The notes beneath the pieces were generated by a model, which worked only from the letters and a program-made list of their open reading frames with translations, was not told where the DNA came from and made no database searches. Positions 218 to 36,400 of a stretch of 57,989 nt of DNA are shown here, in pieces. The position numbers and the translations under genes are program-made. The stretch covers positions 1 to 57,989 of IMG/VR virus record IMGVR_UViG_3300044635_001982; one strand, given 5' to 3'. This DNA comes from a virus (taxonomy: Duplodnaviria; Caudoviricetes). Within the stretch, counting starts at the first letter, position 1. Every line of letters starts with the position of its first letter.

Positions 218-226
218 TCACCCTTC

Positions 227-3200
227 ATGGGACAAGGCAACTTCGACAGCGGGGACGAGGACTATGAGGACATCGTGCAGCGGCGGGTGAGCCCGCAGGA
301 TGTGCTGGCCGCGCAGCGCGGGGCGAATGCTGCGGCGGCGCAAAAGGCGGCGGGGGCGAGCGACGTGCCCGAGGCCGTGCAGCCGAAGAGCGCGGTGGAG
401 GAACTGCGGGTGGAGGGTCCGAAGAGAGGGGACACGCCGGAGGATTTTTGGGCGCGGCAAAACGAGGCGGTGGCGCGGGGCGTCCTGCCGACGGCGCGGC
501 CGGCGGATGCGAACGAGGCGGGGCGGCAGCAGCGGGAGGCGGAGACTGGGCTGCGGCAGAAGCAGGCGGAACTCGATGCGGAAACGCGGGCGCGGCAGCA
601 ACAGGCGCGGGCACGCGAGGCGGAGGCGGCGGCAGCGGCGCGGGGCGGGGCGGCGCAGGCTCGGGCGGACGCGGCGGCGAAAGCGAAAGCGGCGCGCGGG
701 GCGCTGCAGAATTTTAAGCGGGCGGGCGGGCTGACGGAATACGACGAGGCGGGAAACGAGGTGCCGAAAATGCAGCCGCATCCGTATCCGCAGCAGGGCC
801 CAACGCCGACGGGCGAGCCGCTGCAGACGCCGGACGTGCCGGCATTCACGCCGGGGCCGACGGGAGAACCGCCGGTGCAGGACAAGGCGGGCAACTGGGT
901 GGTGCCGCACCGCAACGAGTATGGCGGGGTGGACGCGATGCCGGTCGAGAGGTCGCCGCATTTCCACGAGGACCAGACGACGGGAGAGCGCTACTACACG
1001 CACAAGGGCCAGAAAATCCCGCTGGGGGCGAATGCCAATCTGGTGGAGCGCAACAAGCTCAAGGCGACGCAGGTGGAGCTGGAGCGGGACAACATGCAGG
1101 AGCGGATCGACCTCGGGGACGCGCGGCTGCGGGCGGCGGAGGCGAAGGAGGGGATGAAGCCGTTTGCCGCCCAGGTGAAGACGGCGGAGACGCAGATCGC
1201 AAATCTGGAAAAGACGCTGGCGGTGGCGAAGGGGAAGGGGCGCGAGCTGGTGGAGAAACGGCTGGCGGAGGCGCGCGCGGTGCTGGCGGACCCGAACTAT
1301 CTGGCGGCAAAGGCGAAGCTCGATGCGGCGGAGGCGGAGATCGGCACGCGACAGAAGAGCATCCTCGACCGGCGCGAGCAGGCGCTGGAGGTGGTGCGAA
1401 ATCTGGACAAGCTGAAGGCGGCGCGGAATCTGCCGCCCGGAACTGTGCTTCGCCCGGCGAAAGCGGAGGAGCTTTTCCCGCCGGAAGCACTGACGACGGA
1501 TGCGGGCGGGCGCAGGAGCGTGAGCCGGGATGCGGTGGAGGCGCAGGTGGCGGCGCTGGTGGCGCAAGGGCGCGGACCGGAGATGCAGGGACCGCCCGCA
1601 CCGGGGGCACGGGTGCCGGAGAAAGTGCCGACCTCGCACATCGCGGGATATGGGGCGTATCTGGAGCAACTGCGGGCGAGCGGGATCGAGGCCGTGGGGG
1701 GCAAGCCCATCGCGCAGGAGATCGAGCAAGCCAACGAGCAGCAAAAGAAGCTCCGGGCGATGGGGATCATCGCGGAGAAAGTGAGCGAGAGTGGGGCCGT
1801 CAGCATGGCCAAGTTCAGCGCGCTGCCCGATGCGGAGAGGGCGGCTTTTTTGCAAGGCCTTCCAGCAGCGCAGCGGGCACCGTTTGCGAAAACGCTGGCG
1901 ACGTTTCGGGCGATGGCCGTGATGGAAGCCGTGGGGCTGCAAAACGCGGACCAAGCCTTTGCCATGTTGAGCCCGGAGCAAAAGGCGCTGGTGAAGGAAC
2001 AAATCGGCAGGGAGGGGATGCAACAGTTGGGGCAACTGGCTCAGATGCGGGCTCAAAGGGAGAGCGATCAAGCGCGGGTCGAGGGCAAGGCCGCGGCGTA
2101 TGAGGCGAGCGGAATCGGTGGCAAGGTGTGGGCGAACGCGGTGGCGCTTTACGGAGGAGCGACGAAAGGGCTGGGGGCATTGGTGACGGCTCCTCCGCGG
2201 ATTTACGGGATGCTTTTCCAGAACGGCGCGATCAAGGACCGGGCCGGCATCCAGTGGGCGGACAATGTGGATGCGATTTTGGACGAGACGTATTCCGGCG
2301 GGAAGAGCACGGAGATCGCGGACATGGCGGGCAACCTGATCGGCAGCACGCTGTCCTTTTTGATTCCGACGGGGCTGGTCGGGCAGGGGCTGCGCGCGGG
2401 CGGCGTGGGGGCGAAAGCCGCCCAGGGCGCGGCGCTGGCGACGACGGCGCTGGCGGGCTCGGTAATCAACGGCGCTGGATCGGTGGCGGAATCGACGGCG
2501 CTGGGTCTGACGGATGAGGAAACGTGGAAGCGGTTTTTGCTGGCGGCACCGCTGGGTGCCAGCGAGGCGCTGGGTCTGCCGCGCGGCATGCAGCGCATGG
2601 TGAACGGGATGATCCAACTGGACCGGGCGACGCAGGGGAGCTTTAAGCGGCTGCTGGTAAGCATGGGCCGCGAGGGATTGCAGCAAGTGCCGGAAGAGGT
2701 GCTGCAGGAAGCGGGCAACGCGCTGGTGATCGGGCTGGGGGACATGGCGATGGGCATCCGCAGCCGGGTGGATGAACGGACCGGCGAGCGGCGGGTGCCG
2801 ACGGTTGCCGACGTGCTGACGCAGACGGTGGAAAGCGGACTGCAGGGCGCGGCGGGAGCACTGATGTTTGGGGCGGTCTTTGCGGCGAACGCGCACGAGA
2901 AGGACCGGGCGCGGCTGCGGGATTACGCGAGGGCTTTGGAAACCGACGGCGGCTATGCGGTGATGCACGATCTGCTCGGGGAACTGCGGGGGCAGATGAA
3001 CACGGCACGGGCGGAGGGTCGGGAGGACGAGGTGCATGCGCTGAAGGACCGCATCGAGCAGGCGCAATTCGCGCTCGGCGAGGCGGCGAAAAAGGTGACG
3101 AAGATCGAGCCGACGGCGCGCGAGGCGATGGCTCGGACGATTGCGCCGGAGTTTGACCTGGCCGGGGCGGACCGGCAGCTCGACGGGAATGAGACGCTGC

Positions 3201-6200
3201 GGTTTGCGGCGGTGGAGATCGGGCGGGCGATGCGCGGGGCTTATCCGGGGGCCGCGGCTTCGGGGCAGGGAGGCGCGCAGGCGGCGCTCGACCAGATGCT
3301 CGGGGTGCATGTGGTGGCGACGGATCTGACGGGGGTGCTGAATGGGGGGATGATCGAGGCGGGCAAGGCGGCGGCGCTGGAGCGGCTGGGGCTGCTGGAG
3401 ACGGAGCAACAGGCGGATGGCTCGACGGTGATGCGGGTGACGGATGACGCGCTGGCGCTGTTTCCGCCGGCGCTGCGGGACGCGGTGGCGAATGACACGA
3501 CGGGCAAATACAATTTCAAGGTGACGGCCGGCACGCCGGGGCAACTGGTGAACAACCTCGTGAAGAGCGGGGAGGATCGGCTGGCGGCGGAGGCGCGGGC
3601 GAAGAGCGCGCAAGCTGGGCCAGCATCCAGTCCAGGAAGTGCAGCAGCGCCGGCGACGGGCGGGACGATTCCGGCAGCGGAAGGAGCGGGGCAGGGGCAG
3701 ACATCGGGTGGAAGTGCGCCGCAATTCCGCGTGAGGCTCAAGGTGGAACTGCCGGGCGGGGTGGCGCGGACGCAACCGGTGACGGTGTCCGCGGCAAACG
3801 CGGCGGAGGCGGTGCAGATCGCGGTGGCGCAGGCGCGGGGCTCGGCTCCGCAGGGGGCGAAGATCGCGGTGGCGGGGAAAGTCGAAGCTGTAACCGGAGA
3901 AGTTACAGGTGTAACCGCGAATGTTACAGGGTCACGCGGCGATGTGACGGACGATGCTGCGGAGGTCAATCGGGCGCGGCAGGTGTTTGCGCGAACCTAT
4001 GACGCTGCCCGGCCCCTGCTGCTCAAGCTGGGCGTAGGCAAGGTGGTGGAAGACCGGACGATGTCCGGAGGGATGGCTGTGGACAAGGGCGTGCTGCGTT
4101 TCAACCCGGACCAGCTCGCGATGATGATCCGCCTGAAGCGCGACGCCGGCATGAGTGAGGAGGATGCCGTGGCGCTGGTCATGGACGAGGAGAAGTGGCA
4201 CGCCGTGGGCCTCACCGTTATCAACCAGCGCGAAGCGGAGGAGATCGTGCGGACGGCTCCGAAGCGGATGATCAAGGCGGCGCGAAAGATTTACAACGGC
4301 TGGGATAATCTCAATGCCTGGCAACAGGGGCACGAGCTGGTGCGGATGGTTTTGCAGGGCCGCTACGCCGGCACGCTGACAGAGCAGATTCACAAGGCCA
4401 TCGAAAAGATCGCGGCGTGGTTCAAAAAGCGGGCTGAGGAATTGCCGGATGACGCGCCGCTGATCCGGGCCGCGGCGCGCATCGAGGCCAGGCTTGCGGA
4501 GATCAGCGCGGATGAGCGGATGGACATCGACTCGACGAACGATTCGCCGACGGATGAGGACTTCAGTCAGGATTCCGGGGCGGAATTTCAAATCTCCACG
4601 CCGCAGGGCGGGGTGAAGGTGCGCGGGCGGTGGCGGGTGGTGGAGGCGAGCGAGCTGACGACGAGCGACCGCCCGCAATACAACGCGGAACTGCAGCGGC
4701 GGGACCGTGGGCGGAGTGCGAGCCAGGCGCAGGTGGCGGAAATCGCCTTTGCGCTGGATCCCACGCGGCTGGGGGAAAGCGCGACGAGCGACACGGGCGC
4801 GCCGATCATCAATGCGCGGGGCGAGGTGCTGAGCGGGAACGGGCGGACGATGGCGCTGCGGCAGGTGTATGAGCGCGGGGCGACGAAGGCGGCGGAATAC
4901 CGGGCTTTCGTCGAACAAATGGCGGACAAGCTCGGCATCGCGGACCAGCTCGCCGGCATGCGCAATCCGGTGCTGGTGCGGGAGGTGACGGATTTCGGGA
5001 AGTCGAACGAGACGGAATTCGCGGACCTTTCCAACCGCTCGCAACTGCTCGGGCGGAGCGCGGTGGAGACGGCGATGGATGACGGGCGGATGCTGGTGGA
5101 CGAGGGACTGCTTGACCAATTTCAGCCGGGCGAGGACGGGGACGTTTTCACGGCGGGCAACCGGCAGTTCAACCGGCTCTTTGTGCAGCACACTGCCGAC
5201 CGGGCGCAACTGCTCAAGGGCGACGGTTCCTTTGCGCCGGAACTGGAAGGGCGCATCCGGCGGGCGGTGCTGGCGGCGATCATGGCGAACGCGCCGGAGA
5301 GTGCGGAGGCGGTGACGAGCGCGCTGGAACGGGCGGACAAGCTGGGGCTGACGCGGCAGGTGACGGGGATCATGGCCGCGGCGGGCCGGCTGCTGAAATT
5401 GCGGACGACGAACCCGGAGATGGACATCGCGGCACCGCTGGCGGAGGCGCTGGCGGGAGCGATCGAGGCGAAGGGGCTGATCGAAAGCGGCAAGGCCAAG
5501 GGCATAGAGGACGCGCTGGGGCAGGGCGTGCTCTTTGGCGAGCCGTCGGAAGCGGCGAAGATTCTGACGCGGGAGCTGCTGGAGCGGACGAGCGCGAAAG
5601 CGGTGCGCGAGATGCTGGGGGAATATGCGCGGGTGGCGGAAAGCGTGGCGAGCGGCCCGACGATGTTTGGCGACGAGACGCCGGGGATGACGCCGGCGGA
5701 GGTGCTGGAGAACATCGTGAATGCCGGAGCGCGGGAGAAGGCGCGGGCGAATGCGGCGCGGGGACTCAGGGAGGCTCTGGGGGCGGCGGCGGTGGTGGAC
5801 ACCTATGCGCCCCGGTATGAGCAGATCGACGCGAAAAAACCGTGGCTGAAACCGGTGACTGCGGCCATGCGGGCGCTGCCGGTGCCGGTGCAAACGGCGA
5901 TTCTGCAAGCCAACGATGCCGGGAAACTACCGGCGGTGCCGGCAGAACTGGCTCCGCTGATCTCCAATGCCAACGCGGCCTATGAGGCGAATTTGAAGCG
6001 GGAAATGGCGGGACTCAAACCGGCGTGGGAAGCCTACCGCAAGGAATTCACCAAGGAGGTGACGGATTGGTATGACCGGGAAGTTTCCGCGGTGGCGGAG
6101 GACACAGGGACGCTGCCGATGGTGGGCGTGGCGCTGAAGGGCGACCGCGGCATGGAAAAAGCGCTGGCCGATGCGCGGCTAAACGGGACGGAGCCGGACG

Positions 6201-9200
6201 TGACGACGATCAACGATGTTGTGCGGGGCAGCATTGTGGCGCTGAATGATGCGGGCGTGCAGGCCGCGGTGGCGGCGATTCAGGCGCGCTTTGAGATCGT
6301 GAAACACAAGGATCGGTTTGCGACACCACTGGACGGTTACAGCGACCATGCTTTCACCATCCGCCTGCCCAACGGGCGCAAAGCGGAAATCCAAGTGCAT
6401 CGGGTGGATTTGCTTTTTGCCAAGGAGGTCGGTGTGGGGCATGGCATCTACGAGGGGCTTCGCAGCGCATGGGCGGCGTATGGGGTGACGAAGAATGCCG
6501 CGCTCGAACCGTGGATTGCGGCGCAACAGCAAGCCAATGCCGACTTTTACGGAAGCGTAGTGGCGGCGTTTCTGAACTCCTCCTCGGTGCCGACCTCGGC
6601 ATCACCCATCAGCGCCCTCGCGACACCCGCCGCGGCCATGCCTTCGACCGCTGAACCGTCGGGCCTGAGGAATCCCGGAGATCCCGGAATCCGGGCCAGC
6701 ATCCGACCGGAATCGAGTTTCAGGAACTCGGTGCCGCGCGGGAATCTTTCAGGTAGTTTCAGTTCACTCATCTCCACTCAGATCATACAAGGCGAGGAGG
6801 GGAGCGTCAACGCGGGGCCGCTTTTTGCTGCGAAAGTGGAGCCAAAAAAGCTGCGGGAACTCTTCGACGCGGCGGCGGATGAGCCGGGGCCGATGGACAT
6901 TGCCGGCGGGCTGGATGTGGCGGGGTATCCGGGGCTGTTTGGCGGAGGGCTGGGCGTGAGCCGGGCGGACATGCCGCAACTGCCGAAGGAATTTCGGGCG
7001 CGCTTTCTCGCGTGGCTGGAGAAGCGGGGAATCGGGCACAGCGACAAGACGGTGAGTGCGCTGCGGCTCAAGGCGACGCAGCGGGAGCTGGATGCGGTGC
7101 GAATCGGGCGGGTGCTGCGGAGCGAGCGCGAGCTGAGCCGCGGGTTTGTCTCGGCGGATGGGTACGTGATCGACGGGCACCACCGCTGGGCGGCGCAGAT
7201 CGCGGAAGGGTTCACGACGGGGAGGATGGGGATGGACGTGACGGAGATCGGGCTGCCGATCCGCGGGGCGCTGGCGGCGATGCGGGCTTTCAACGCGGAA
7301 CATGGGATCGTTCCGAAACCCATCGAGGGCGAGATGTCGCCGGTGCTCGGCGCGAGCCGGGTGAAGGACACGGGGACGATGGACCTTTTCGCGACGCCGG
7401 CGGTGCAGACGGCGGCGACGGCGTATGTGAAAGCGGCGGCGAAGTCCAACGTGGTGTCCAAGAAGGACTTTGTATTTAAGGCGAAAGCGGACGGGCTGGG
7501 GGAAGTGGCGGAGGATTTGTTCAGCTTCGCGGTGAAGAACCCGCCGGCGTTGACGGTTTCCAGTGACGCCGGTAAGTCTCAGCAACCCTATGAAAACCCT
7601 CCCACCGCTCACGGACGACCTTCGTCCGAATCTGCGCCGTCAGGCGCTTTGGACGACCTGTTTGGAATCATGGCTGGGAAGCGTGAAGCCGAGCGAGGCG
7701 CGGGCGCTGCTGGCGGGGCCGAAGGAGGCGCTGCTGCGGGAAGTGGACAATCTGACGTGGGCAGTGATGGCGTTTCTGCTGACGGCCTACCCGAACCCGG
7801 AGGAGCAACTGCTGCCGGCGAACGTGGCGGAGGCGTTGAAGCAGGAAGCGCCGAACTGGGAGGACGCGGCGGACGCGGAGGAACTGGACCGGGAACAGGA
7901 CAATCCGCTGACGCCGGAAGAGACGGCACGGATCGAGGCACTGGCCCCGCAGTAGCGGACCGCCTGCCGCCGCTGGTCGAGCGGACCACGGACCCGGACG
8001 CGCGCAACCATGTCATCGAGCGCGGCGCGGAGATCGCCCCGCGGGGGCTGATCACGAAGCTCAAGGCGAACATCAAGGCCGTGAAGCTGCTCAAGGCCAT
8101 CCAGAGCGCGCGGCGCAACGCCACGGCGGAGGAAAAGGCGGCGCTGGTGCAATTCACGGGCTGGGGCGCGCTCTCGCAGGCTTTTGACCAGACGAAGGCG
8201 GATTACATTGCGGGCGGGCACCTCGACCGGGACCGGAAAGACCTGGCGCGCTATCAGCAGATGCAGAAAGCGGACATGGATGCGGGCCGGACGGGCGACT
8301 ATTACAAGGAACTGGTGGAGCGCAGCGAGGGGACGATCCGCGGGTATGAGGGCTGGGAGAAAAAGTGGAGCGGCTACTATGCGCAGATCAAGGAAGCGCT
8401 GACGGAGCCGGAATGGCGGCGGGCGCGGGCGAGCACGATCAACGCGCACTACACGAGCGGCGGCATGGTCTCGCTGATGTGGGACGCGGCGACGCGGCTG
8501 GGCTTCCGCGGCGGGAATGTGGGCGAGATGGCGACGGGCATCGGGCATTTCTTCGGGCTGATGCCGCAGTCTCTTCAGGACCGCTCGAAACTTTTCGGCG
8601 TGGAGATGGACCCGGTGAGCGCGGGGATCGCGCAACTGCTCTATCCGGAGGCGGACATCCAGAACGCGGCTTTCCAGCAGGCGGACGTGGCGGACAACTC
8701 GCTGGACCTGAACATCGGCAACGTGCCGTTTGCGAACATCGCGATCACGGATGCGGCGATCAAGGCGCTGGATGGGCCGCTCGACAATCTGCACGACTAC
8801 TACTTTGCCAAGATGCTGCAGAAGACGCGGCCGGGCGGGCTGATCGTGGCGATCACGAGTGCGTTCACGATGGACAAGATGACGGCGACGAACCGGAAAT
8901 GGCTGGCAACGCGCGCGGACCTGGTGGGGGCGTTTCGCCTGCCGAACACGGCGTTCAAGGAGAACGCGGGGACGGATGTGGTCACGGACATCATCATCCT
9001 GCGGAAAAAGGACGGGAACGCTTTCGAGCACGGGAAGGACTGGACGATGCTCGCGGAAAGCCGGACGGCCAAGGGCGTGCCCATCCGGGTGAATGAATAC
9101 TTTGCGGCGCATCCGCAGAACGTGCTCGGGTTGCTGGCCGATGACGGCGAGATGTTTGCCGGGCGCGATGGCGAGACGAAGGAAATGACGGTGCATCCCG

Positions 9201-12200
9201 ACCCCACGCGGCCCGCGGACGTGGCGCTGGCGCAGGCCATCGACGCGCTGCCGGCGGACATCGTGGGCGCGGCGGCTGGGACGAGCGTGCGAGGCGGTGC
9301 GGCCTCGGGCGTGAAGATGGGGAACATCGTGCGGGGCAAGGATGGGAACTTCTACTTCAACACCGGCGGCGAGCCTACGGCGATGATGACGGAGAGCGAC
9401 GCCGAGCTGAACAAGCCGGCGAATCGCCCGCGGGTGCTGGGCTTCATGGGGGTGCGCGATGCGCTGAACCGGCAGTATGAGCTGGAGCTTTCGCCGACGG
9501 CGAGCGCGGAGGCCATCGAGGAAAACCGCGAGGAACTGAACCGGCTGTATGACAACTACACGCGGCGCTTTGAGAATTTCCATCACCGCTCGAACAAAGC
9601 GCTGCTGATCGACGACCCGGATTATTTCCGGCTGGCCGGCGCGGAGGTGGAGCAGCGGGCGAAGGGCGGCATCAAGGCGCTGGTGGCGATGGTGCGGGGC
9701 AAGGCGGCGAAGGTGTATGTCAAAGCCGACGTGTTCTCGAAGCGCGTGCTCTCGCCGCGGGTGGAGCCGACGAGCGCGGACAGCATCGAGGACGCGATGG
9801 GCATGTCCCTGGGCTGGCGCGGGCGGGTGGATACGGGCTACATCGCGCAACTTACCGGACAGACGCGGGAGCAGGTGGAGGCGGCGCTGCTGGAGCGCGA
9901 GATCGTGCTGCGCGACCCGGACACGGGCCAGATTCAAAGCCGGGAGCAATACCTGAGCGGCAACGTGCGCAAAAAGCTGGAGATCGCGCGGGCGGCGGGC
10001 GGGGCGTTTGCGCGCAACGTGAAGCTGCTCGAAGCGGCGCAACCGGCGGACGTGGGCATCGCGGACATCAAGTTCAGCGTCGGGGCGACGTGGATTCCCG
10101 CGGCGATTTACCGGCAGTTCATGCAGAGCCTCGGGCTCGACGTGACGGTCAACTACACGACCGTGGGCGGGGGTGCGGATCATTGGACGGTGGAGAATCC
10201 GACGCGGGTCAGCGCGGACTCGGTGCGCTACAAGGATTTCGATGCCGGACGGTTCACGGCGGACGCGATGCTCGACGCGCTGCTGAACATGCGGCGCATT
10301 GAGATTCGCGACTCCGCGCGCGATGGCGGCAAGGTGAACCCCGAGGCGACGGCGCTGGCGGTGAACAAGGCGAATGAATTCAAGGCGGAGTTTGAACGCT
10401 GGGCGCGGGACACGCCGGGCGTGGCCGACGAGCTGGCGGCGACCTACAACCGCGAGGTGAACGGCTTCGCGCTGCGGACCTACGACGGCCAGCATCTGAC
10501 GTTTCCGTGGGCCTCGAATGACTTCAACATTTTCCCGGACAAGAAGAACACCGTCTGGCGGGCGATTCAGGAAGGCTTCGGGCTGATCGCGCACGGCGTG
10601 GGCGGCGGCAAGACCATCGTGGGCAGTGCCATCGCGCTGGAACTGCGGCGGCTGGGGCTGGCGCGCAAGCCGATGATCGTCGTCCACAACGCCACGCTCG
10701 AACAATTCGCGGACACCATCGCGCAGATCGCGCCGGCGTCGCGCGTGCTGGTGGGGCGGAAGGACGAACTGAAGGGCGCGAAGCGGAAGGAATTCCTGAT
10801 GCGGATCGCTGCGGGCGATTGGGATGCGGTGGTCGTGGCGCACTCGACCTTCAACCTGATCGCGGATGATCCGGCCTTCATGCAGAAGCAGATGGAAGGG
10901 CTGGTCGATGAACTGACCGAGGCGCTGATGGGTGCGGGTTACAACGACCTTGGCGCGGCGAAAGACGACCGGAAGAAAAACGCCAGCGTGAAGCAGATGG
11001 TGAGGATGCTGGAGCAACTGGAGGCGAAGATCGCGGAAGCCTCGAAACGCACGGCGGACACGGAGCTGCTCTCTTTCCAGCAACTCGGGGTGGATGCGCT
11101 GATCGTGGATGAGGTCCACAAGTTCAAGAAGCTGCCCTTTGCCACGAAGCTGGATGTGAAGGGGATCGACGGCGGGATGTCGAAGAGCGGTTACGGGCTG
11201 CTCATGCGGGCGCGCGGGATTCAGGAAAAGGCCGGGGGCAAGAACGTCTTCACGATGACAGGCACGCCGGTGACGAACACGCTCGGGGAGGTGTGGAATC
11301 AGGTGCGGCTGGTCGCCCCGCATCTGCTGAAGGAATACGGGATCGAGAAGTTCGATCAATTCGTCTCGAAGTTTGCGACCGTGGAAAGCAAGAGCGAGGC
11401 GGACCCCTCGGGCGCGCGCAAGATGGTGGAGCGGCTGGCGAAGATCATAAACCTGCCGGAGTGGGCGACGTTCTTCCGCATGGCGGCGGATGTGAAATTT
11501 GGCGATGACATGGTGACGGCTGGACGGCCCGACGTGAAGGGAGGCAAGGCGGAGCTGGTGGCGGTGGAGCGCACGCAGGGCGCGACGGCATGGGTGAACT
11601 ATATCCGCGCTGTGCTCGCTGCGGTTCCCGCGGCGCGCTCGGAGGCCATGCGCGACAAGGATTGGGAGCGGGTGAACCGGATCGGAGCCATTCCAGTCAC
11701 GGCCTACCAAGCCTCGCGGGCGGCGGCGATCGACATCCGGCTGGTGGAGCCGCGGGCGAAGGATGAGCCCGGCAGCAAGGTGAATCTGATGATCGAGCGG
11801 GCGATGGGCATCTACAAGGCGACGGACTCCTACCAGGGGACACAGGTGATTTTCGCGGATGCGATGAACCCCACGCGGATCAGCCTCTTTGACCAGGTCA
11901 TGCCGCTGAACAACCTGGCCATCGAACTCGACCCGCTGAAAGAGCCGGGGACGACATTCCACCTTTACGACGACATCCGCATGAAGCTGATCGCGCGCGG
12001 GGTGCCGGAGGCGCAAATCGCCGTGCTCACGGACAAGAAATTCCAAGGCGACTCCGGCGAGGTCGCGAAGAAAAAGCTGTGGGAAAAGGTGAATGCCGGC
12101 GAGGTGCGCTTTGTGATGGGCAGCACGGAGAAGCTGGGGACGGGCGTGAACATGCAACGGCTGATGGCGGCGGCGCATCATCTGGACGTGCCGTGGACGC

Positions 12201-15200
12201 CGGCGGGACTGGAGCAGCGCGACGGGCGGGTGCTGCGGCAGGGCAATCTGCACATGGACATGAAGATTCCCATCGAGCTGATCCGCTATGGGATGAAGGA
12301 CACGCTCGACGAGGCGCTGTGGGGCATCCTGGAGCGCAAGCAGCGGTTCATCGTCTCGGCGCTTTCGGGCAAGCTGAACGGGCGGGAGATCGAGGAGGAT
12401 GAGATGACGCTCAACCTCGGCCAGCAGATGGCGATTTTGAGCGGTCCCTACGGGCAGGAGATGTTTGAGACGGACAACCGCATCCGCGAACTCGAATACA
12501 GCCGGCAGGCGCACGCCAGCTCGGTGCGGCGGCGGGATGAGGAGATCGCCGACGCGAAGAAGCAAGTGCGCTCGCTGGAAATGGAGCGCACGGGGAATGA
12601 GCCCAAGTGGGCCAAGCTGGACCGGCTGGCCGCGGCGGTGCAAAAGGACGGCGCGCTGCTGACGGTGGACGGGGAGGCATTCGAGACGAAGAAAGCGATG
12701 CTCGAAGCGGTGAACGCGGAGATACAGACGGCGCGGCAGGAATTTGAGAAGCGGGCGGAACTCGACAAGAAAGCAGTGCCGCCGACGCTGACGAGCATCG
12801 TGGCAAACGGCGTGCCGCTGCGGCTGGAGGGACGGCCCTACACGCAAACGATCTACGGGGAGGAGCAGCAAGCCGTGGGCGAAAAGGTGACGATGGATTT
12901 CCTGCTGGAAGGCCAGCGGTGGAACGGGCGGTTCACGGATGAGAACCATTTCGGCGAGGTGAAGAGCGCGGCCACGCTGGTCTCCCGGCTCGAAGAGCTG
13001 GGCGAGCGGGTGCAGGGGCGGCGGGACAGCCTGCGGCGCAATCTCGACCGCTATACGGCGCTGGCGAATATGGAGCGGCTGGGGGCGTGGGCGCATCAGG
13101 AGGAGTTTGACCGGAAGACGGCGCGGGCGGCGGAGCTGCTGGGGCTGATGCGGGGGGCGGCGGCGGCGGCGGCCCCGACCGCGACGACGGATGAGGCGGA
13201 GCCGCAGGCACCGCGAGAAGGAGAGTCCGATGAGGATTGGGCTCAGCGAAATGCCGCATGGCAGGCCGCGCAGGCTTCGACGGCGGAGAGTGATGCGGAC
13301 ATGGTGCTGGGGGCGGCGCGGGTGGGGGAGGAGGAGCGGATTGCGTCGGTGGCCGTGAAGCGCGCGGATGGGAAAGTGTTCACGGGCAACGGAACCCATT
13401 GGGATGTGTACGATGACGCCTTTGCTGGTGATCCCGCGTATGAGTCGAACAACTGGGAATTGCCGCCGGGAACCGTCGATGGGTTCACGACGACTAACGG
13501 CCGGTTTCTTGACCGGGAGGACGCTTACTCCCTGGCGCAGAAGTATCTCGATCTTCCGAGCGATGGGGCTTACGCGAAGATTGGAGGATTGGAGAGCGAA
13601 GAGTTTTACCACTCGGAAACCGAGGCGGGGTTAATGCGCGGGCAGTCGCTCGGGGCTTCGCAGGTGACGGATTCCGGGCGGGCGGAAATGCGGGTGAAGG
13701 ACGAACGGCGAATGGCGAATGACGCGCTGCAGCCGGCGAAGTCGGTGGCGGAGCTGGTGAAGGAGAACATGGGGCTGGCGGTGACGATCGCGAATGCCTA
13801 CCGGAACATTCCGGGGCACGATTGGGACAACGTGCTGGGCGAGGCGCGGAAGGCGCTGGTGAAGGCGGCGCGGGGTTTCGATGCTGACCGGGGCGGGGCT
13901 CCGTTTGGGGCGTATGCGGGGACGGCGATTCGGAACACGCTGAACAATCTTTTCAACAAGAACGCGCGGACGGCGGCGCGGGAGGTGGCGAGCGCGGATG
14001 AGGAGGGAGAGAATGAGGGAGAGGGAGAGAGTCTGAAAAACAGGCTGGTGGATGAGGGCGCGCGGGCGCGCGTGAGCGGGGGCATCGAGGGCCGCGAGAC
14101 GAGCGCGGAACTGGCGGAGGCGATGGCGGGGCTGCCGGATCGGGTGCGGACGGTGCTGACGATGCACGGCGAGGGTGCGGGGCTGCGGGAGATCGGGACG
14201 GCCATCGGGCTGAGCCACGAGATGGCGCGGCGGATTTTGGCGAATGGGACGAAGGCGGTGGAGGCGCGGCTGCGGGAGCGGGGGTTCAAGGGGGTGGATG
14301 AGGATGGGGTGCTGTATGCGGCGAAGGTGGACAAGTTGGAAGGAGTGGAGTTTTACCGGAGCGGAGCGACCACGGACGCGCTCCTCGACGCCTATCAGAA
14401 CACGGGCTCAAACATCGGCGTGGATGTGCAAACCCTTGGGAAGTCGCACGAGGAAAAGCTCACGCGCTACGCGAAGCGTGGCGGCAAGGTCTTTGTCGAT
14501 TCGGGCGCGTTCGGGGTGCGCCAGCGGGGCGGCGCGGTGGATTTCGAATTTGTCTTCGCGCGTTACGAGAAAATGCTCGGTGCCGCGGGCGACGGGGCCG
14601 CAAACTTCAGCCTGGTCATGCCGGACGTGATCGGGGATCAAGCGGGGACGCTGTCTTTGGTGCGGCGGTATGCGGACCGGATTCGCATGATTGCGAGGCG
14701 CGGGGCGCGGCTGATCGTTCCGGCGCAAACCGCGGGCGGCAGTCTCGACCTGGCTGAACTGGCGCAGAAATACGCGGACATCCTCAAGATTCCTTTCGCG
14801 CTCGGCATCCCCTCGAAGATGGACGCGACACCGCGCGCGGATGTGGTGGCATTCTTCGCAGAGGCCAAGCCTAACGATGTGCATTTGCTGGGGATCGGGG
14901 TAAATGCCGCGACGCAGCCGTATCTCGAAGCGCTGCGCGCCAATTCGCCGGGGACGAACCTGACGATGGATGCAACGTGGCATCGCGCCAAAGTCGGGCA
15001 GGGGCGTCCTATCACGGAAGTGCGCAACCAGCTTTTTAAGGACGCCGCCGATGACACGGAAATGGCGGCAAGCATTTACGTGGACGGGTGGGTGCCGACC
15101 GATGAAGAGGCGGATGTCATTCTCTCGGTCTATGGCGGAACGGCGCTCGGCGTGCGGCAGGCTGCGCTCAAGGGCGAACTTGGCGAGTATCTCGCCGGTC

Positions 15201-18200
15201 TCGATTACGGCGATCCCTACGGCAGCAAGTTAAAGGAACTGACGAACCGGATCACTCAACGCGAGAGCGGGCCGGATCTGACGCGGAGGGCCATTGAGCA
15301 AGTCGTCACGATGCTCGGAGCGGCGGCGGTGCATGACGCTGAGATCGGGGAGGAGGCGGATCGGATTGAGAACCCGCCGGCGGAGGCGGAGACGAGGCCG
15401 CAGGAATTTTTGAAGGAACTGGTGGTGCGGACGACGGCGGGGCGGCTGGATGCTTTGGATTACGTGGTGCCGGGGACGAAGAATCTGCTGACGGATGCGC
15501 ACATCAAGAACGCGAGGATCTCGGCGGCGCTGCGGATTTTCCGGGAGCGCATCGAGGAGAATGTGCGGCAGAGCTTTGGGTATCCGAGCTGGTGGCGGAA
15601 CGCGGGGAACGCGGCGCGGCTGAAGCGGTTCACGGCGGAGCTGCTGCCGACGGCGGCGCGGCTGAATGCGGTGGGGCAAAAGGCGGACGGGGCTTTTGAG
15701 TTTGCGTCGTTCTGGATGCGGGCCGGGGAGATCGGGGTGAAGCTGGGCGGGAATGGAAAGCCGGAGACGGATGCGAAGCGCATGGGGATGAACGGCGTGC
15801 CGGTGACTTTGCGCGAGGGCGTATTTATTCCAGGGCGGCATGGGGAGAAGCTGCGGGTGGGGAAGATGGTGGACACGATGACGGCGGGGCGGAGGCGGGT
15901 GTTCTGGCAGCTCGAACGCTTTGTGCCGGCGGCGGAGCAGGCGACGCTGCATGAGGCGTTTCATCAGCGCTACCCGGAGGCGGCGCACTGGCTGGATTCG
16001 TGGATCAATCCGCACCTCAAGGAGGCGCGGGTGGAGATCGGGGGGATCGAGCTGCCGGACTTCAACCGGTTTTCGCTGCGGGAATTCTGGGGCGAGATTT
16101 CGCCATTCGGCGAAGTGGGCGAGGTGAAGGGTTACACGCCGGACATTTTCCAGACGAAGAGCCTGGTGGGGATGCTCGCTGGCCGCGTGCGCGATCTGCT
16201 GAACCGGACGTGGACGGGGCCGGGGCGGGAATACAAAAGCGGCGAGGCGCGGGAGCGCGGGCAGGTGCGGAATCTTTTCGAGGGGTTCAATGCGCGGGCG
16301 GCGGAGGCGCACATGGAAACGGAGCGGCGGAAGCTGGCGGAGGCGCTGCTGAAAAAGGCGCTGGTGCCGATCCCCGAGGGCGGGGTGCCGAGCAACTTTG
16401 TGCGGTGGGATGAGGAGACGGTGGATCAACTGCTGCGCTCGTATCACGCGGTGCAGGGTCTGGACCCGGCGCAGTATGTGGCGCTGAAACGCAAGGTGCT
16501 GGAGGAGGCGCGCGGCGGAGGGACGGTGCCGGCGGATGCGGAACTCGGGCTCGCTTTCGACGCGGCGGACAGGGCGCGGATCGAGAAGCTGGCGGGGCGG
16601 ATCGCGGTGGAGGCGGCGGAGCACCGGGACAAGATGATTCACCGCACGGCGCTGGCGGAACTGCGGCGGCCGCTGGCGAGCCAATACATCAACAACGGGC
16701 TGCTGCGGATGATCGACGCGGGACTGCGGGGGGCGACGGGCGGCTATCTGGCGAACCCTTTCACGCTGGCGATGAACCAGGTCTCGAATGAGGTCTTCGT
16801 GACGATGCACACGTTGCGGCGGGCGCTGTATGGGGTGATGTCGCTGCCCTTTGACCGGAAGCAGGGGAAGCTGGGGCTGTATGAGGCGGGGAATCTTTTG
16901 AAGGGGGTCATCACCGACCGCTGGTATAACAAGCGGGTGCGCGAGCTGGTGCCGGATGAACTCTTTGACGGAAACAACCGGTTCAACTCGATCTCGACGG
17001 AAGACTTTGAAAAGTCGCCGATGGAACTGCTGCGGGAATTGAACGTGGCGGGCGCGGTGCTGAAAGGGATGCGCTACGGCAACGTGGACGCGCGGGCGAA
17101 ACAGCGGATCGCTTTTGCGAGCTACATGGCGCACGCGCGGCTGGCGTGGGATGAGGCGAAAGCGGCGGGCAAGGTGGGCGAGGGCGTGAGCAAGGGGGAG
17201 TGGATGAAGGACTGGGTGCAGAACCTCGCGCCGGACGCGGTGCATCGGAGCGCGTATTACGCGGCGATGCTGGTGGCCCTGGACTACGTGAACGTGGCCC
17301 CGGCGCTGGATGAGACGAACCAGGTGATGATGGGCGGGCGCGATGTGACGGCGGAGGTGAACATGCTGCGGCGGGGGATCACGCCGTTTGCGAAGTTTCC
17401 CTACAACCTGGCGCGGCAGGGCAAGCGGTTCACTTTCGACTCGCTGCGGGATTTGCTGCCGGGGAATGCGCAGGTGAGCGGGATCGAGCTGACGCGCGGC
17501 GGGGAGACGACATGGGCGCAGAAACGGCAGGCGGTGGCAAACCTGACGATGATGGGAATGATGTATCTGCTGGCGCGGGCGATGATGGATGACGACGACG
17601 ACGGGACGCCGAAGCTGGGGCGCGAACTGGACGACCTCGGGCGGCGGCTGGAAGGCGCGTACCAGACGAGCGGGAGAATCAACATCACGGACACGCCGAT
17701 CGGGCGGACGATCTCCGCGGCGTTGGACATGATGGGGCTGCACGATCTGGCGGATGCCGATGCGTGGATGCGGATTCGCGCGCTGCCGTATGCGTCGAGC
17801 GCGGTGGCGCTGGCGACGATGGAGCAGGCGGTGAAGGGGAATCCGGCCGGGCAGGAAATGGAGGCGAACGCGACAGCGGTGCTGAGCGACATGGTGAGCG
17901 AGGGGCTTTTGCTGAAAATGGTGAACGCGCTGCGCGACGCGAAGGGGCCGTATGACAAGGGGAAGAATACGAGCTTCATGGCGGGGGAGACGGGCTTTGA
18001 TCTGGTGACGGGGCGCTTCATCCCGCCGCCGCTGCTGCGCACGGTTGGGGCGCTGGTGGACCCGATCTCGCGGCGGTCGAGGCCGGTGGCGAGCCTGGAC
18101 TACGATCCGGGGCTGCTGACGGCGATCAAGATGAAGCTGCCGGGCGCGGCGAAAGACCTGCCGCCGAGCGGGCGGGTGGTGATCGGCGCGGACGGGAGTG

Positions 18201-23973: not shown

Positions 23974-25596
23974 TTAGCTGGTGACGGTGGGCAGGTTGGC
24001 GAGACCCTGCGGGCGGTAAGCCGCCTCGATGAGCGCGTAGTTGCGCACGCCGAGCTGGGTGTCTTTGGCAAGGCCCTGGCCGTAGGTGGCGAGGAAGCCC
24101 ATGCCTTTCTTCATGCCCCAATCGCCCATTTCGGTGATTGGTTTGATGGCGGGTCCGCCGTAGGCGCGCAGGCCGGCCATCGCGCCCATGCCGATGCCCC
24201 AGCAGTAGGGGACGGCCTTGGCGTTGACCAGGACGATGCGGGAACCGGCGGGATGCCAGTTCGTGTGCTTCGTGGAGTCCCAGGTGATGCCAGCGAGTGA
24301 GGCGAAGCGCGTGCCGGAGGCGGCGCTGCCGTTGCCCGCAGAATCGACACCGCCGAGCAGGCCGGAAAGGATGATCCGGTTGCCGTTGTTGTCGCTGCCG
24401 GTGTAGCGGTAGATGCCGTATTTGCCGGCTTCGCCGCCCGCGCCTGCGCTCGTCACGTTGTAGATGATGAGGTAATACACGCCGCTGTCCGCGCTTGGGG
24501 CGTCGTGGCCGAGCAGGGAGTAGGGATTGCCCGGAAACCACTCAAACGGGAAGTGCGTGGTGGAGACATCGGAGCGGCCCCCGCCATAGACGGTGATGGT
24601 GGTGGCGTCGGTGACGGTGCGGTTGTTCAGCGTGGCCCCACCGAGCAGAGCCTCGGGCTGGATGGGTGCGCCGAGCGGGCCGCGGGTGTCCTCGTGGACG
24701 ACATCCATGTGGAAGATCGCCTGGTTGTCATACTTGGCGTAGCCGCCGCTCCAGATGACGTTCTCATTGCCGCGCACCGCCGCGTCGCGGAGCGACTGGA
24801 GGTAGGTGCTGTTGCTTTTGAGCGGAGTCAGGAAGCGGTCGCTGCCGAGGATGATGTAGCCGAGGACATCGGCGCTGAACTTGTCGATCTTGCGCTTGGT
24901 CAGGTTGGCCGGCGGGCAGGCCCGCGTTTTGAGCAGGCTGGCCGTGTCGCTGATGAGCGTGGTGTTCATGACGTCGGCGGTGAGCAGGGTATCCGTGGTG
25001 GCGCGGTCGTTGGGCCGGATGGTATTGGCCGCGGTGGCGTAGCGCCTCCAGAGCATGAACATGTCGTTCTGGCGCTGGAGCCCGAAGAATTCGGAGAGCA
25101 CTTCGGCATAGGATTCCTCCACGCTGGCACCCGCCGCGAGGAAGCGCTGCATTTTCTCCGTCCAGCCGAGACCGTGCCGGGCGATGTCGATCTTCAGGTT
25201 GAAGCTGTTGAAGTCGAGCGCTTCGGCCTCCAGGGCGGTTTCGCCGATGGTGATGCGGCCGCCGGGGCGGGACATCGTGGTGAAGTTCACGAGATCCTGC
25301 GCGCCTTTGGTCAGGTCAGTTTTGATGCAGATCGGTCGCCCCGAACCCTCCGGGCCTTCCATCTGGCCGAGGATGTCGTTGTTCGCGGTCTGCAGCAGCA
25401 TGAGCTTGCTGAAGGCTTCGCCGACGACCTTGCTATTCTGCGCGCGGGCGGCGGTGTAGGTATTGACGGTGGAAAGCCGTCCGTCCGCGAAGAGCGGAGG
25501 CGGCACCAGTAGCTCGCCGGAATGGGCGAGTGCGGAGACGAACGTGACGGCGAAGAGCACTAAGGCCCTGCAACCGCGGGTGATGAGATGTTTCAT
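23974..25596 (-). CDS. Major capsid protein, N4-gp56/DUF4043-like
   Basis: DLTKGAQDLVNFT...GETALEAEALDFNSFNLKIDIARHG pattern; follows the scaffold and precedes a terminator. Confidence 0.8.
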   Translation of the reverse strand: MKHLITRGCRALVLFAVTFVSALAHSGELLVPPPLFADGRLSTVNTYTAARAQNSKVVGEAFSKLMLLQTANNDILGQMEGPEGSGRPICIKTDLTKGAQDLVNFTTMSRPGGRITIGETALEAEALDFNSFNLKIDIARHGLGWTEKMQRFLAAGASVEESYAEVLSEFFGLQRQNDMFMLWRRYATAANTIRPNDRATTDTLLTADVMNTTLISDTASLLKTRACPPANLTKRKIDKFSADVLGYIILGSDRFLTPLKSNSTYLQSLRDAAVRGNENVIWSGGYAKYDNQAIFHMDVVHEDTRGPLGAPIQPEALLGGATLNNRTVTDATTITVYGGGRSDVSTTHFPFEWFPGNPYSLLGHDAPSADSGVYYLIIYNVTSAGAGGEAGKYGIYRYTGSDNNGNRIILSGLLGGVDSAGNGSAASGTRFASLAGITWDSTKHTNWHPAGSRIVLVNAKAVPYCWGIGMGAMAGLRAYGGPAIKPITEMGDWGMKKGMGFLATYGQGLAKDTQLGVRNYALIEAAYRPQGLANLPTVTS

Positions 25597-31428: not shown

Positions 31429-31791
31429 TCAACACTCAACCTCCCTTCCTCCCAAGTGAGCGCGGAAGATGGCGCGGAGGACGAGGCGGCGGGCTCGGGC
31501 GTTTTCGGCATCCCAGAGGCCGCGGGCGTGGAGTCGGGTGAGGGCGCGTTCGTCGGCGTCGATTTCGAGCAGGAGGTGGGCGAGCCTTCCGGCCAGCGGG
31601 ACGCGGTGCAGGGCGAGCCAGAGACGCCAGAGCCGGGAGCGCGTGGCATGCTGGCGGGCGTGGGCGCGCTCGTGCTCGGCGACGTATTCCGGCGGATGGC
31701 CGATGAGGACGATGCACTCCGTCTCCGGGTCGTAGTGGGAGGCGCGCCAGGAGGCGAACCAGATGTCATCGGCGGTTTCCCGCGGGCTCAT
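31429..31791 (-). CDS. Small zincin metallopeptidase-like protein
   Basis: HERAH (HExxH) plus downstream EIDAD; ATGA-coupled to the portal. Confidence 0.65.
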   Translation of the reverse strand: MSPRETADDIWFASWRASHYDPETECIVLIGHPPEYVAEHERAHARQHATRSRLWRLWLALHRVPLAGRLAHLLLEIDADERALTRLHARGLWDAENARARRLVLRAIFRAHLGGREVEC

Positions 31792-33839
31792 GCGGCGGGC
31801 GGATCCTCGGCGCGGGTGGTGGCGTCGGGGATGACGTTGGTGGGAAGGGCGGGCGGCTGCGCGGCGGCGGCTTCCCCGCCGGCGGGCGAGGGTTCCGCAG
31901 GCTCGGGCGCGACCGGGAGCGGCGGCGGCAGCTCGGGCAGGCGGAAGATTTCCTCGGCGCTCTGGATGTCCGCGCCTTTGGCGACCTGGATGAAGAGGGT
32001 TTGCGCCGCGGCGGCGACGCCAGCGGTCGGCAGGCCGGAGACCTGCAGCGTCTGGATCCACGTCGGCAGGATGCTGGTGATGATGAACTGCGCCTGCTCG
32101 CGCTGCTCCTTCATCTGGAAGCGCGTGAGCAGCAGGCGCACGTTCATGTCGAGCTGCGCGAGCACCTTTGCGGAGGCGAGGGAAAGGACTTCGCTGGCCG
32201 CGCCTTCGAGGTAGCGGAACGTCTCGTCCTTGTTCTGCTTCGCGTAGAGCGTCTTGAGCCCGAAGAGCACGGCGGGTTCGTAGCCGTCCTTCAAATCCTC
32301 GGTGAGCATCCGGTGCAGAGTGCTGGCGCTTTGCAGGATCGACGAAACGCCGGTCGCGGTGCTGGCGCTGGGCAGCGCGGAGTAGTCGCCCTGGGCGGCG
32401 CTGGTCACGCCGCTGTCCGTCTGGACGAGCTGCATGAGGAGCTGCATGAGTTCCCAAGTGCGCTGATCGAGGTCGGGGAAATCGACGATCTGCAGGGCGT
32501 CCTTGGCCGTCTTGCCGGGGCGCAGCGTGTAGATGAAGCCCGGCGTGCGGATGAGGCGGGTTTCGCCGGCCCGGCCCTGCTCGGTGGCGTCGCCCTGCCA
32601 GAACTTCACCGGATCGGAATTGTTCTCGTTTTTGTAGAGGATGCAGTTGAGGAGCGAGTCGATGAGCCCCTGCGCGCCCTCGTAGAGTTTGTAGAAGCCG
32701 CGGCCATACCAGCGGCCGGGTACGCGATTGACGGGGATGGCGTGGAACGGGAGATGGCCGCGGACGGTGATGTTGGCGCGGTAGTCGAGGTAGAGCGGTT
32801 CATCAATGCCGCCGGCCATGACGAGGTAGATGTTGCGCCCCACGCCGTCTTCAAACACGTCGTAGTTTTGCAGGTAGATTTCCTGCACGCGGACGTTGGG
32901 GTTGTTTTGCAGATGCTGGCGGCCGGCGCTGACTTCGCCGTGGGTGGCGCGGGGCTCGTCCTCCTTGCTCTTTGGTCCGTCGGGCTCGGTGGCGAGCAGC
33001 TCGAAGAGGGCCGCGGTGTCCTCGTCGTCGTGCCCGTAGTCGGCGCGGAGCTGGCTGACGGTGCGGGAGAATTCGTGGCAGACGGCGGGCGCGACATCGA
33101 GCGACGGCACGTTGAGCGGGGCGATGAAGGCGTCGAAGCGGACGTTGGCGACATCGAGACCGTGATAGGTCTCGGACTCCTCCTCGATGAGCACCTCGCG
33201 AAATTCCGTGGCGTCGGACTCGATGACCTCGGGAGCCTTTTCATAGACGAGCGCGCCGTCGTCGTCGGCCACGGTGCCATCCTCGGGGCGGATGTAGTCA
33301 CCCTCCGGTGTGACCACGGGCTTGCCGGTCGCCTTGTCCACGAGGACGAGATCGAGCGTTTCGTAGCGATCGACGGCGGTGCGGTGGGTGGTTTTCAGGA
33401 TGCACTCGCCGAGATCGATGGCGAGGCCGATGCCTTCCTTGCCGTGCTTGGTGTATTCGGCCTGGCCGAGTTTCCAGGGGGCGTGGCGGTTGATCTGGCC
33501 GGAGAGGGCGGCATCCTCCATGCCGCCGACGGGGGTGACGCCGAACCACGGCTTGCTGCCGAAGATGTCCTCGCCGCAGCGCGCTTTCATAAAGCGGGTG
33601 ACGTTGCGCACGAGATTGAGCGAGTGGTTTCCGCTGAGATCGAAAATGCGCTGGCGGGTCGGGTCGCCGCTGAGGCGGGAGGCGTAGTCGGCATTGGCCT
33701 GGCGCTCGAATTCGCGGCGCTCGGGGTAGTAGCTGGCATCCATCTCGGCGCGGTATTGCTCGATCATGCTCTGGGCATCGGCGACGAGGCGGAGCTTTTG
33801 CTCCTCGGTGAGGCGGCGGGAAAGGGCGGAGGGCTTCAT
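31788..33839 (-). CDS. Portal protein
   Basis: 683 aa; NLVRNVTRFMKAR, PFH...VPGRWYGRG and SGVT...QG...TATG motifs of podophage-type portals. Confidence 0.85.
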   Translation of the reverse strand: MKPSALSRRLTEEQKLRLVADAQSMIEQYRAEMDASYYPERREFERQANADYASRLSGDPTRQRIFDLSGNHSLNLVRNVTRFMKARCGEDIFGSKPWFGVTPVGGMEDAALSGQINRHAPWKLGQAEYTKHGKEGIGLAIDLGECILKTTHRTAVDRYETLDLVLVDKATGKPVVTPEGDYIRPEDGTVADDDGALVYEKAPEVIESDATEFREVLIEEESETYHGLDVANVRFDAFIAPLNVPSLDVAPAVCHEFSRTVSQLRADYGHDDEDTAALFELLATEPDGPKSKEDEPRATHGEVSAGRQHLQNNPNVRVQEIYLQNYDVFEDGVGRNIYLVMAGGIDEPLYLDYRANITVRGHLPFHAIPVNRVPGRWYGRGFYKLYEGAQGLIDSLLNCILYKNENNSDPVKFWQGDATEQGRAGETRLIRTPGFIYTLRPGKTAKDALQIVDFPDLDQRTWELMQLLMQLVQTDSGVTSAAQGDYSALPSASTATGVSSILQSASTLHRMLTEDLKDGYEPAVLFGLKTLYAKQNKDETFRYLEGAASEVLSLASAKVLAQLDMNVRLLLTRFQMKEQREQAQFIITSILPTWIQTLQVSGLPTAGVAAAAQTLFIQVAKGADIQSAEEIFRLPELPPPLPVAPEPAEPSPAGGEAAAAQPPALPTNVIPDATTRAEDPPAA

Positions 33840-36071: not shown

Positions 36072-36115
36072 TTTCTCCGCCTCGAATGAGGCGGGAAAAA
36101 GTGACAGGGGAGGAG

Positions 36116-36400
36116 TCACGGCAATTCCCTCCACGCCTTTTCCATTTCCTCGCGGACAGCGCACTCGGCGGCAAAGCATTCCATGCCGTTGCGCGCCCGG
36201 CGGATGCGTTCGACGTGCCCGAGTAATCTTTCAAACGTCTCCTGATCTATCGCTCCGGTTTCCACCGTGGCGCGGAGATGGTCGTCGAGCGCGTCGATCT
36301 TGGCGCGCAGTTGCTCAGACGCCTCCGACAGTTCCGCCGCGGTCTTGCGCGCGTGGAAAATCGCCGCGGCGCGCTTTTCGATGTGTTCCAGGGTGTTCAT
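36116..36400 (-). CDS. Hypothetical coiled-coil protein
   Basis: Abuts the upstream gene; 94 aa. Confidence 0.6.
   Translation of the reverse strand: MNTLEHIEKRAAAIFHARKTAAELSEASEQLRAKIDALDDHLRATVETGAIDQETFERLLGHVERIRRARNGMECFAAECAVREEMEKAWRELP

Follow-up and report, generated by a model that had tools for sequence, protein, structure and literature searches.

The virus genome IMGVR_UViG_3300044635_001982 (Duplodnaviria; Caudoviricetes), analysed here as a single window of 57,989 nucleotides, carries a giant gene (227..18421, + strand) for a polyvalent protein of 6,064 amino acids (aa), and in this protein a short peptide, L-x-A-[AS]-x-V, recurs seven times at the borders of modules that are shuffled among relatives. 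This recurrence is a real, non-random feature, far beyond chance, and the codons used indicate that conservation acts on the protein and not on the DNA. The sites are probably cleavage sites, whichever enzyme is involved. The narrower reading, in which they would be cut by a zincin-like domain embedded in the same chain and the modules would thereby be freed, is the explanation that we prefer, and we consider its chances evenly balanced.

Occurrence of the motif and module borders

The regular expression L.A[AS].V gave exactly seven matches in the giant protein, at aa 1851, 2199, 2374, 4361, 4475, 4696 and 5030. On the + strand of the window these are LGAAAV (5777..5794), LFAAKV (6821..6838), LGASRV (7346..7363), LGAARV (13307..13324), LGASQV (13649..13666), LYAAKV (14312..14329) and LGAAAV (15314..15331). 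The initial annotation had listed the same seven copies with correct positions and sequences, and since the list contains every match there was no picking among sites. Only 0.93 matches are expected from the composition of the protein, and in 2000 shuffles the mean was 0.9 and the maximum 5, so that none of the 2000 reached seven. When the last position was widened to [VIP], nine matches were obtained versus 2.0 expected, and the two extra sites (aa 482 and 3268) lie inside modules. The six-frame translation of the genome holds 13 further matches, and none of the 13 is in frame in the 50 other candidate genes, capsid and portal included.

Relatives were obtained by several searches. The giant set comprises 46 proteins of at least 2,000 aa and up to 7,063 aa, including the protein of the window and three giant relatives found by a word-based search (P0002, P0003 and P0004). 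For the C-terminal module, an exhaustive HMMER search of a library of 1.84 billion proteins gave 104 cluster representatives, and tblastn with this module against 50,697 phage records gave no match. A scan of viral contigs with a single protein confirmed no relative, and an 11-sequence alignment gave seven viral loci. The DarB-like part of the protein has relatives with about 33% identity in 131 phage records, among them Pseudomonas phage Itty13, Agrobacterium phage Atu_ph08, Erwinia phage PEp14 and Sinorhizobium phage PBC5.

The borders of shared modules were located by BLAST of the giant protein against its relatives, which yielded 87 alignment blocks from 54 subjects overlapping aa 1433-5100. 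P0003 is a collinear close relative, and without its three blocks 84 remained. None of these 84 blocks crosses a motif with at least 50 aa on each side, versus a mean of 14.6 for random sites, and not one of 5000 random placements gave a value as low. With P0003 included, one of 87 blocks crosses (15.7 for random sites; again 0/5000 as low), and with at least 30 aa required on each side three of 84 do so (16.9 for random sites; fraction as low 0.0004). Thus, the motif sites are borders of modules shuffled among relatives, and the comparison of homologue boundaries with the motif, proposed as a check in the initial annotation, shows that the two coincide.

Individual blocks illustrate this result. 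With P0004 a single block is shared, the TGT-like module (residues 4707-5033 of the window's protein, 3491-3814 of P0004), and in each of the two proteins it extends from one motif to the next. Several blocks of the sigma module stop at or near LYAA.V (those of P0002 and P0006 at residue 4701), and others end earlier or overrun the site by at most 50 aa. The block of P0040 (residues 1864-2192) fills the second segment, which is the RelA/SpoT-like module.

Lineage-specific versions of the motif

Other giant relatives carry versions of their own, which are uniform within a protein and differ between lineages. P0002 and P0003 each have six borders with L.AAR[VI], of which several lie between modules that are absent from the window's protein, and the same motif stands at junctions of unrelated modules (positions 1662, 1849, 2502 and 2970 in P0002; 4019 in P0003). 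P0004 carries [LM].[AM][AS][KRS]P nine times, a version that an unbiased enumeration of grouped patterns ranked first, with seven occurrences versus 0.1 expected. The string [FY]ALDP appears five times in P0042 and six times in P0047, versus 0.05 expected, and the versions of P0036 and P0021 are L[FG]AK.. and ASAxKP, respectively. Leu and Ala are retained at no fewer than 12 junctions between unrelated modules.

The TGT-like module is flanked by LYAAKV and LGAAAV in the window's protein and by MFASRP and LAASRP in P0004; judging from these flanks, a module common to two lineages wears the version of the recipient. Downstream of the shared sigma module, the strict motif lies within 30 aa in five of 16 proteins, and the remaining ones mostly show a looser hydrophobic-x-Ala string at this place (an impression by eye, not a count). 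Furthermore, the Pfam domains of the relatives fall between their own motifs and none of them is split. In P0047, the ART domain (2593-2732) is located between sites 2557 and 2758, and LPD5 and LPD1 (1970-2309) are flanked by sites 1688 and 2320; P0036 has six domains, LPD1, LPD3 and RadC among them, which are kept apart by sites 1259, 1840, 2029, 2723, 2955 and 3625.

Conservation as protein or as DNA

Across the seven copies, the Leu codon of the motif is CTG, CTC or CTT, the third residue is encoded by GCG or GCT, and the fourth by GCG, AGC or TCG. No DNA repeat common to all seven sites was found: only two of them (5777 and 13307) belong to a common 23-nucleotide repeat family with 87% identity, and families of this kind, this one included, number at least 60 in the GC-rich region. 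Because the copies differ in their codons and share no common DNA repeat, the motif is conserved as protein.

The GC content at third codon positions (GC3) is 0.74 in aa 1851-2198, 0.73 in aa 4361-4474 and 0.76 in aa 4696-5029, and it ranges from 0.83 to 0.87 in the other six segments. The shift in codon style that the initial annotation had seen at 13.3-13.65 and 14.3-15.3 kb is therefore confirmed, and aa 1851-2198 is a third shifted segment. These values suggest that the three modules (5777-6820, 13307-13648 and 14312-15313) were imported recently from sources of lower GC content.

The motif could also be regarded as the protein trace of a DNA recombination hotspot, as in the recombination joint suggested initially, or of internal translation starts at GTG. 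Modules are indeed exchanged at these points, three of them have the lower GC3 of a recent import, and the Val codon is GTG in all seven copies. However, GTG accounts for 334 of the 408 Val codons of the gene (82%), so its presence at the seven motifs is unremarkable; the codons that precede it include TTT and TAT, which are not a ribosome-binding site; and the last residue of the P0004 version is Pro, which cannot be a start. The DNA at these points bears no signal that would bring the exchange about. Considering also that the codons vary among copies and that the repeat family covers so few of the sites, both forms of this explanation were rejected and we regard it as extremely improbable.

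The [HE]ExxH zincin-like domain

The motif EEKWH lies at aa 1321-1325 (nucleotides 4187-4201), upstream of the first border motif, as the initial annotation had placed it. The surrounding domain (aa 1239-1437; 3941..4537, + strand) occurs in 20 giant relatives and is always upstream of the effector array. In the 20 sequences, the domain residues E84, H87, Y118 and E132 are invariant and R135 and E148 nearly so; E132 or E148 could be the third metal ligand, a role inferred from this conservation. In P0042 and P0047, HEFMH is found about 150 aa before the first motif.

AlphaFold2 with an alignment gave a predicted local distance difference test (pLDDT) score of 92.9 for the 199-aa domain and 94.6 for a 145-aa core, which was modelled alone because a helical hairpin at the C-terminus of the longer model dominated the fold search. 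The modelled fold consists of a helix, three strands and then a helix (73-93) that carries the motif. A structure search independent of Foldseek matched it to 2ejq_B, the conserved hypothetical protein TTHA0227 (Z 7.1, root-mean-square deviation 3.2, 94 aligned residues), jannalysin (4jix_B, Z 5.2), SPRTN (6mdx_A, Z 5.1), the N-domain of anthrax lethal factor (3kwv_C, Z 5.0), a predicted zincin-like metalloprotease (3e11_B, Z 4.9), selecase (4qhf_A, Z 4.6), abylysin (4jiu_A, Z 4.5), Wss1 (5xbn_A, Z 4.5) and ArdC (6sna_A, Z 3.8). The best matches are mostly zincin proteases, and since Z values below 8 may reflect only a common arrangement, the zincin fold of the modelled domain is graded as weakly supported. 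The zincin-like domain of the initial annotation is hence backed by its motif, by conservation in 20 relatives and by these weak fold matches.

A profile search of PDB sequences with the domain gave nothing meaningful. An Atlas search led to LPD23 (0.96), which is carried by 18-20% of the members in the two best clusters and is taken as a lead only. The predicted complex between the zincin-like domain and a 40-aa stretch around the sixth motif had a score of 0.00, which counts neither for nor against an interaction.

Proposed processing of the chain

In the mechanism that we propose, the protein would be a virion-delivered polyvalent polyprotein, in which the [HE]ExxH zincin-like domain and then seven effector modules are lined up between an N-terminal anchor and an LPD38-like anchor at the C-terminus. 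By its likeness to phi24B gp47, it is probably packaged in the virion. The hydrophobic-x-Ala-[Ala/Ser]-x-[Val/Pro] peptide between modules would serve for recognition and cleavage; a protease, likeliest the embedded zincin-like domain, would cut at the motifs and release the modules. The cut would come late, either inside the capsid or once the protein has been ejected into the host; packaging and threading would then involve a single chain, and the enzymes would work separately only inside the cell.

Three relatives with the C-terminal module, P0028, P0029 and P0048, bear on this timing. Their first 45 aa or so, with ...THN followed by Thr, have the look of a C-terminal split-intein half. Such a start would mean that the giant chain is spliced from two genes in these relatives; it would be whole at some stage, which favours late cutting. 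Directly upstream of P0029 (L006:8876-13387) there is no partner open reading frame (ORF). On the IMG/VR contig in question (L005/L006, 54,249 bp), which is one phage genome, the C-terminal module is encoded twice, in P0029 (1,503 aa) and in P0033 (4,450 aa).

A fixed border peptide, its conservation at the protein level, its uniformity within a chain, its differences between lineages and its re-fitting when a module moves call for a reader of the peptide, and a protease would be the simplest one. The motif could instead remain uncut as a conserved linker, a cap or hinge for independent folding that is retained since swaps preserving it work, in which case the protein would act as a single chain. 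This agrees with the coincidence of sites and module borders and with module exchange, and the split-intein-like start of three relatives suggests that the intact chain matters at some stage; moreover, N4 virion RNA polymerase, ArdC and TraC1 are mentioned in PMC5512222 as being transferred unprocessed. A passive linker, however, needs no fixed sequence, and the pattern of uniformity, lineage differences and re-fitting points to a shared reader; hence, we consider the linker unlikely.

The reader could also be a scaffold, portal, chaperone or unfoldase for which the motif is a repeated docking peptide that orders the chain in the capsid or feeds it to the tail, with no cutting at all. Docking would explain the protein-level conservation and the lineage versions as well as a protease does, and the probable packaging of the protein, like that of its LPD38-bearing relative phi24B gp47, would suit it. 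On the other hand, we know of no such docking system, the genome offers no sign of a partner, and the strict placement at module borders speaks of a need for release and not for docking, which makes this explanation very unlikely.

Regarding the position of the cut under the preferred protease reading, four versions (ASKP, AAPV, AKPV and ALDP) have Pro as the fifth or sixth residue. Bonds before Pro are poor protease substrates, and we infer from this placement that the bond after the invariant Ala is the only option common to all versions, so it would be the likeliest place of cleavage. Alternatively, the chain may be cut before the invariant Leu, if the zincin prefers a hydrophobic P1' residue.

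The enzyme could be another than the embedded domain: a head-maturation protease of the phage that went unrecognised, the canonical HEWFH metallopeptidase in the case of relatives, or a protease of the host that acts once the protein has been ejected. A hydrophobic-x-Ala string followed by Ser or Ala bears some likeness to the sites at which serine proteases of the assemblin and signal-peptidase types cut. In relatives, the LPD5-HEWFH-LPD1 unit ends in the motif of its own lineage (P0002, P0036, P0042, P0047 and P0009), which fits self-release, and head proteases of giant phages cut internal or ejected proteins at short motifs, such as the AXE described in PMC10052503. Against these candidates, neither Pfam nor PHROGs matched a protease in the other ORFs scanned, several of which match nothing. 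Head-protease substrates usually include capsid and portal, where the motif is not in frame, as in the rest of the 50 candidate genes. The window's protein lacks the LPD5-HEWFH-LPD1 module, and a host protease would poorly explain versions that differ between phage lineages. For these reasons, another enzyme seems improbable.

The widespread LPD5-HEWFH-LPD1 unit, seen in P0002 (2196-2507), P0036 (1695-1845), P0042, P0047 (2170-2324) and P0009 (2244-2427), represents a canonical HExxH peptidase module. At its C-terminal end stands ...T[DE]xGxxL[FY][AS], a peptide of the type that separates modules, and this end could be its own release site. The large protein of phi24B has ...KLYSL at aa 1074.

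Several observations weigh against cleavage by the embedded domain. The first position of the zincin motif is His in three of the 20 sequences and Glu in 17, and the window's protein has EEKWH and not HExxH; this EExxH variant may be inactive, which would favour another enzyme. All the Z scores are below 8, Foldseek gave no match at E <= 0.001 (the top row was selecase, 0.078), and no peptidase model of Pfam matches the domain at E <= 5, where only DUF7112 appeared (E 0.011). The P1' residue would be a small one here, which is unusual for zincins. The ddrB-ParB module is joined to the zincin-like domain with no motif between them. Fixed patterns are enriched in two (core pattern) and three (general pattern) of the 46 giant relatives; the enumeration adds five more, giving eight of 46 with a clearly recurrent motif, and these screens detected none in about 38. 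No recurrent motif was found in the giant proteins of PEp14 (4,914 aa) and phi24B (2,807 aa). Finally, no cleavage products are on record for this or related proteins, and all the evidence presented here is based on sequences and models.

A broader reading is also conceivable, according to which some tailed phages would deliver one injected polyprotein of up to about 7,000 aa, made of interchangeable anti-host enzymes, each bounded by a lineage-specific "cleavage code" that is read by a built-in EExxH zincin, code and reader co-evolving. Any module between two code words would then be a deliverable effector, and in some relatives a split intein would first assemble the chain from the products of two genes. 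This reading as a whole is put forward tentatively, as more doubtful than not.

Comparison with known systems

By its domain content, the giant protein belongs to the phage polyvalent proteins. Like P1 DarB/DdrB, the giant DarB-like proteins of PEp14 and its relatives and phi24B gp47, it joins many unrelated effector domains in one chain. It has in common with this group the ddrB-ParB module, the DarB-like methylase-helicase and LPD-type regions (LPD23 and LPD38, as Atlas leads only), a gene that adjoins head genes and a zincin-like domain in the chain. It differs from other polyvalent proteins in that its effector borders bear a defined peptide with lineage versions and in that the candidate protease is mostly EExxH. 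For phi24B gp47, bioRxiv 10.64898/2026.04.10.717836 describes the domains LPD5, LPD1 and LPD38 and the detection of the protein in virions by proteomics. A processing of polyvalent proteins by zincin-like peptidases was put forward by Iyer et al. (2017; PMC5512222); in the available text of that article no cleavage or linker motif is named, and the word "linker" occurs 0 times. In the literature searched, which leaves out most subscription journals, no description of a motif between the modules of polyvalent proteins was found.

In the MARTX toxins, as outlined in PMC2900308, an embedded cysteine protease frees the effectors at Leu sites in unstructured segments between them. MARTX and the window's protein are both giant carriers with conserved N- and C-terminal regions, central swappable effectors and a recurrent site between effectors. 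The differences are that the present protein belongs to a phage and is not a secreted toxin, that its motif is longer and of another sequence, and that cleavage is a proposal here. Pfam found no C80 cysteine protease domain in any segment, so the protein is not a member of the MARTX family and the analogy concerns the mechanism only.

Head-maturation proteases also recognise short motifs in internal or ejected proteins. The site of the T4 enzyme is L/I-x-E. Such cuts trim N-terminal propeptides of many proteins, capsid and portal included, whereas the motif described here lies inside one protein, between modules. For the head protease gp245 of SPN3US, cutting at AXE is given in PMC10052503. 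No head protease gene was detected by Pfam or PHROGs among the ORFs scanned in the window, several of which had no match of any kind.

With the minimal zincins (selecase, jannalysin, abylysin, SPRTN/Wss1 and the C-domain of ArdC), the modelled domain has in common a small alpha/beta fold, three strands, an xExxH helix and conserved Glu residues downstream of it. Unlike them, it has Glu instead of the first His in most members (17/20), its Z scores reach only 7.1 to 3.8, and it lacks a sequence-level match in PDB or Pfam.

Modules along the chain

The chain begins with a conserved N-terminal region (aa 1-1238; 227..3940, + strand) that is shared with P0002, P0003 and others. Read by its sequence, this region has charged or coiled parts first and then Gly/Ala-rich hydrophobic stretches; no family matched it, and Pfam at loose cut-offs found no peptidase in it. 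The zincin-like domain is followed by the ddrB-ParB module (4538..5776, + strand), identified by PF18763 at aa 1463-1587 (E 7e-33).

The remaining modules follow on the same strand, separated by the motifs. The second (aa 1851-2198; 5795..6820) is tentatively RelA/SpoT-like, from a match to PDB 6ox6 (Tas1) with an E value of 0.011. The third (aa 2199-2373; 6839..7345) matches only phrog_2859, of unknown function. The fourth and largest (aa 2374-4360; 7364..13306) is a DarB-like methyltransferase joined to an SNF2/ResIII helicase (phrog_10089, E 0; ResIII, SNF2 and Helicase_C domains). The fifth (aa 4361-4474; 13325..13648) is a small module of 114 aa and unknown function with no match in Pfam or PHROGs. 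The sixth (aa 4475-4695; 13667..14311) is a sigma-70/ECF-type sigma factor according to Pfam and NCBIfam, and the seventh (aa 4696-5029; 14330..15313) is possibly TGT-like, its one match being phrog_887, a queuine tRNA-ribosyltransferase (E 5e-5). NCBIfam found nothing besides the sigma factor and the helicase.

The initial labels therefore stand for the sigma factor and the methyltransferase-helicase, are weakly backed for the TGT-like and RelA/SpoT modules, and find no backing for aa 2199-2373, which had been called ParB-like. Likewise, the statement that the modules are bracketed by the motif holds for the effector borders and fails for ddrB-ParB, which lies before the first motif and has none on its N-terminal side.

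The conserved C-terminal module (aa 5030-6064; 15332..18418, + strand) matches no family and is connected to LPD38 clusters through an Atlas lead (0.97). Pfam at loose cut-offs found no peptidase in this region or in neighbouring ORFs. The string HEAFH at aa 5242 was considered as a second zincin motif and rejected, since relatives have HAGFH and HGAFH at that place.

Genome context

The source record is a complete virus genome with direct terminal repeats, of which the giant gene takes up 31%. The head module is podovirus-like and lies on the opposite strand, with an SU10-type portal gene (31788..33839, - strand) and a major head protein gene (23974..25596, - strand), both identified by Pfam/PHROGs, and a probable scaffold gene upstream of the latter. 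The portal, the major head protein and a small terminase (52459-53112) thus share the 58-kb genome with the giant gene. A second SNF2-family helicase gene (602 aa; 34371-36179, - strand), separate from the helicase of the giant protein, adjoins the portal gene. The genome also holds two tyrosine-integrase-like genes and one serine invertase/recombinase gene (36952-38283, - strand; 48840-49826, + strand; 50937-51566, + strand) and a gene for a DNA polymerase beta-like nucleotidyltransferase (43510-44151, + strand).

Within the giant gene there are long antisense "shadow" ORFs of up to 1,941 aa (218-3775, 7787-13612 and 15230-18265, all - strand), which are a by-product of high GC3 and not genes. 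The GC skew of the + strand, calculated over positions 1-40000, is positive across both the giant gene and the minus-strand head genes (19-38 kb), so it does not simply track the coding strand.

The sole relative of the C-terminal module in genome collections is on a contig (L011) of a metagenome-assembled genome labelled Spartobacteria; it is 79% identical and ends at the contig edge. Binning of phage contigs is unreliable, and this is a weak hint of a verrucomicrobial host.

Implications

Processing of polyvalent proteins by embedded peptidases has been proposed since 2017, and a defined border peptide makes this proposal directly testable, as it predicts exact fragments and provides residues that can be mutated (the motif's Leu and Ala and, in the domain, E1322 and H1325). 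By the same peptide, giant phage proteins that lack annotation could be divided into their effector units, the unknown 114-aa module included. If the code is real, these phages would hold a natural orthogonal set of protease/site pairs.

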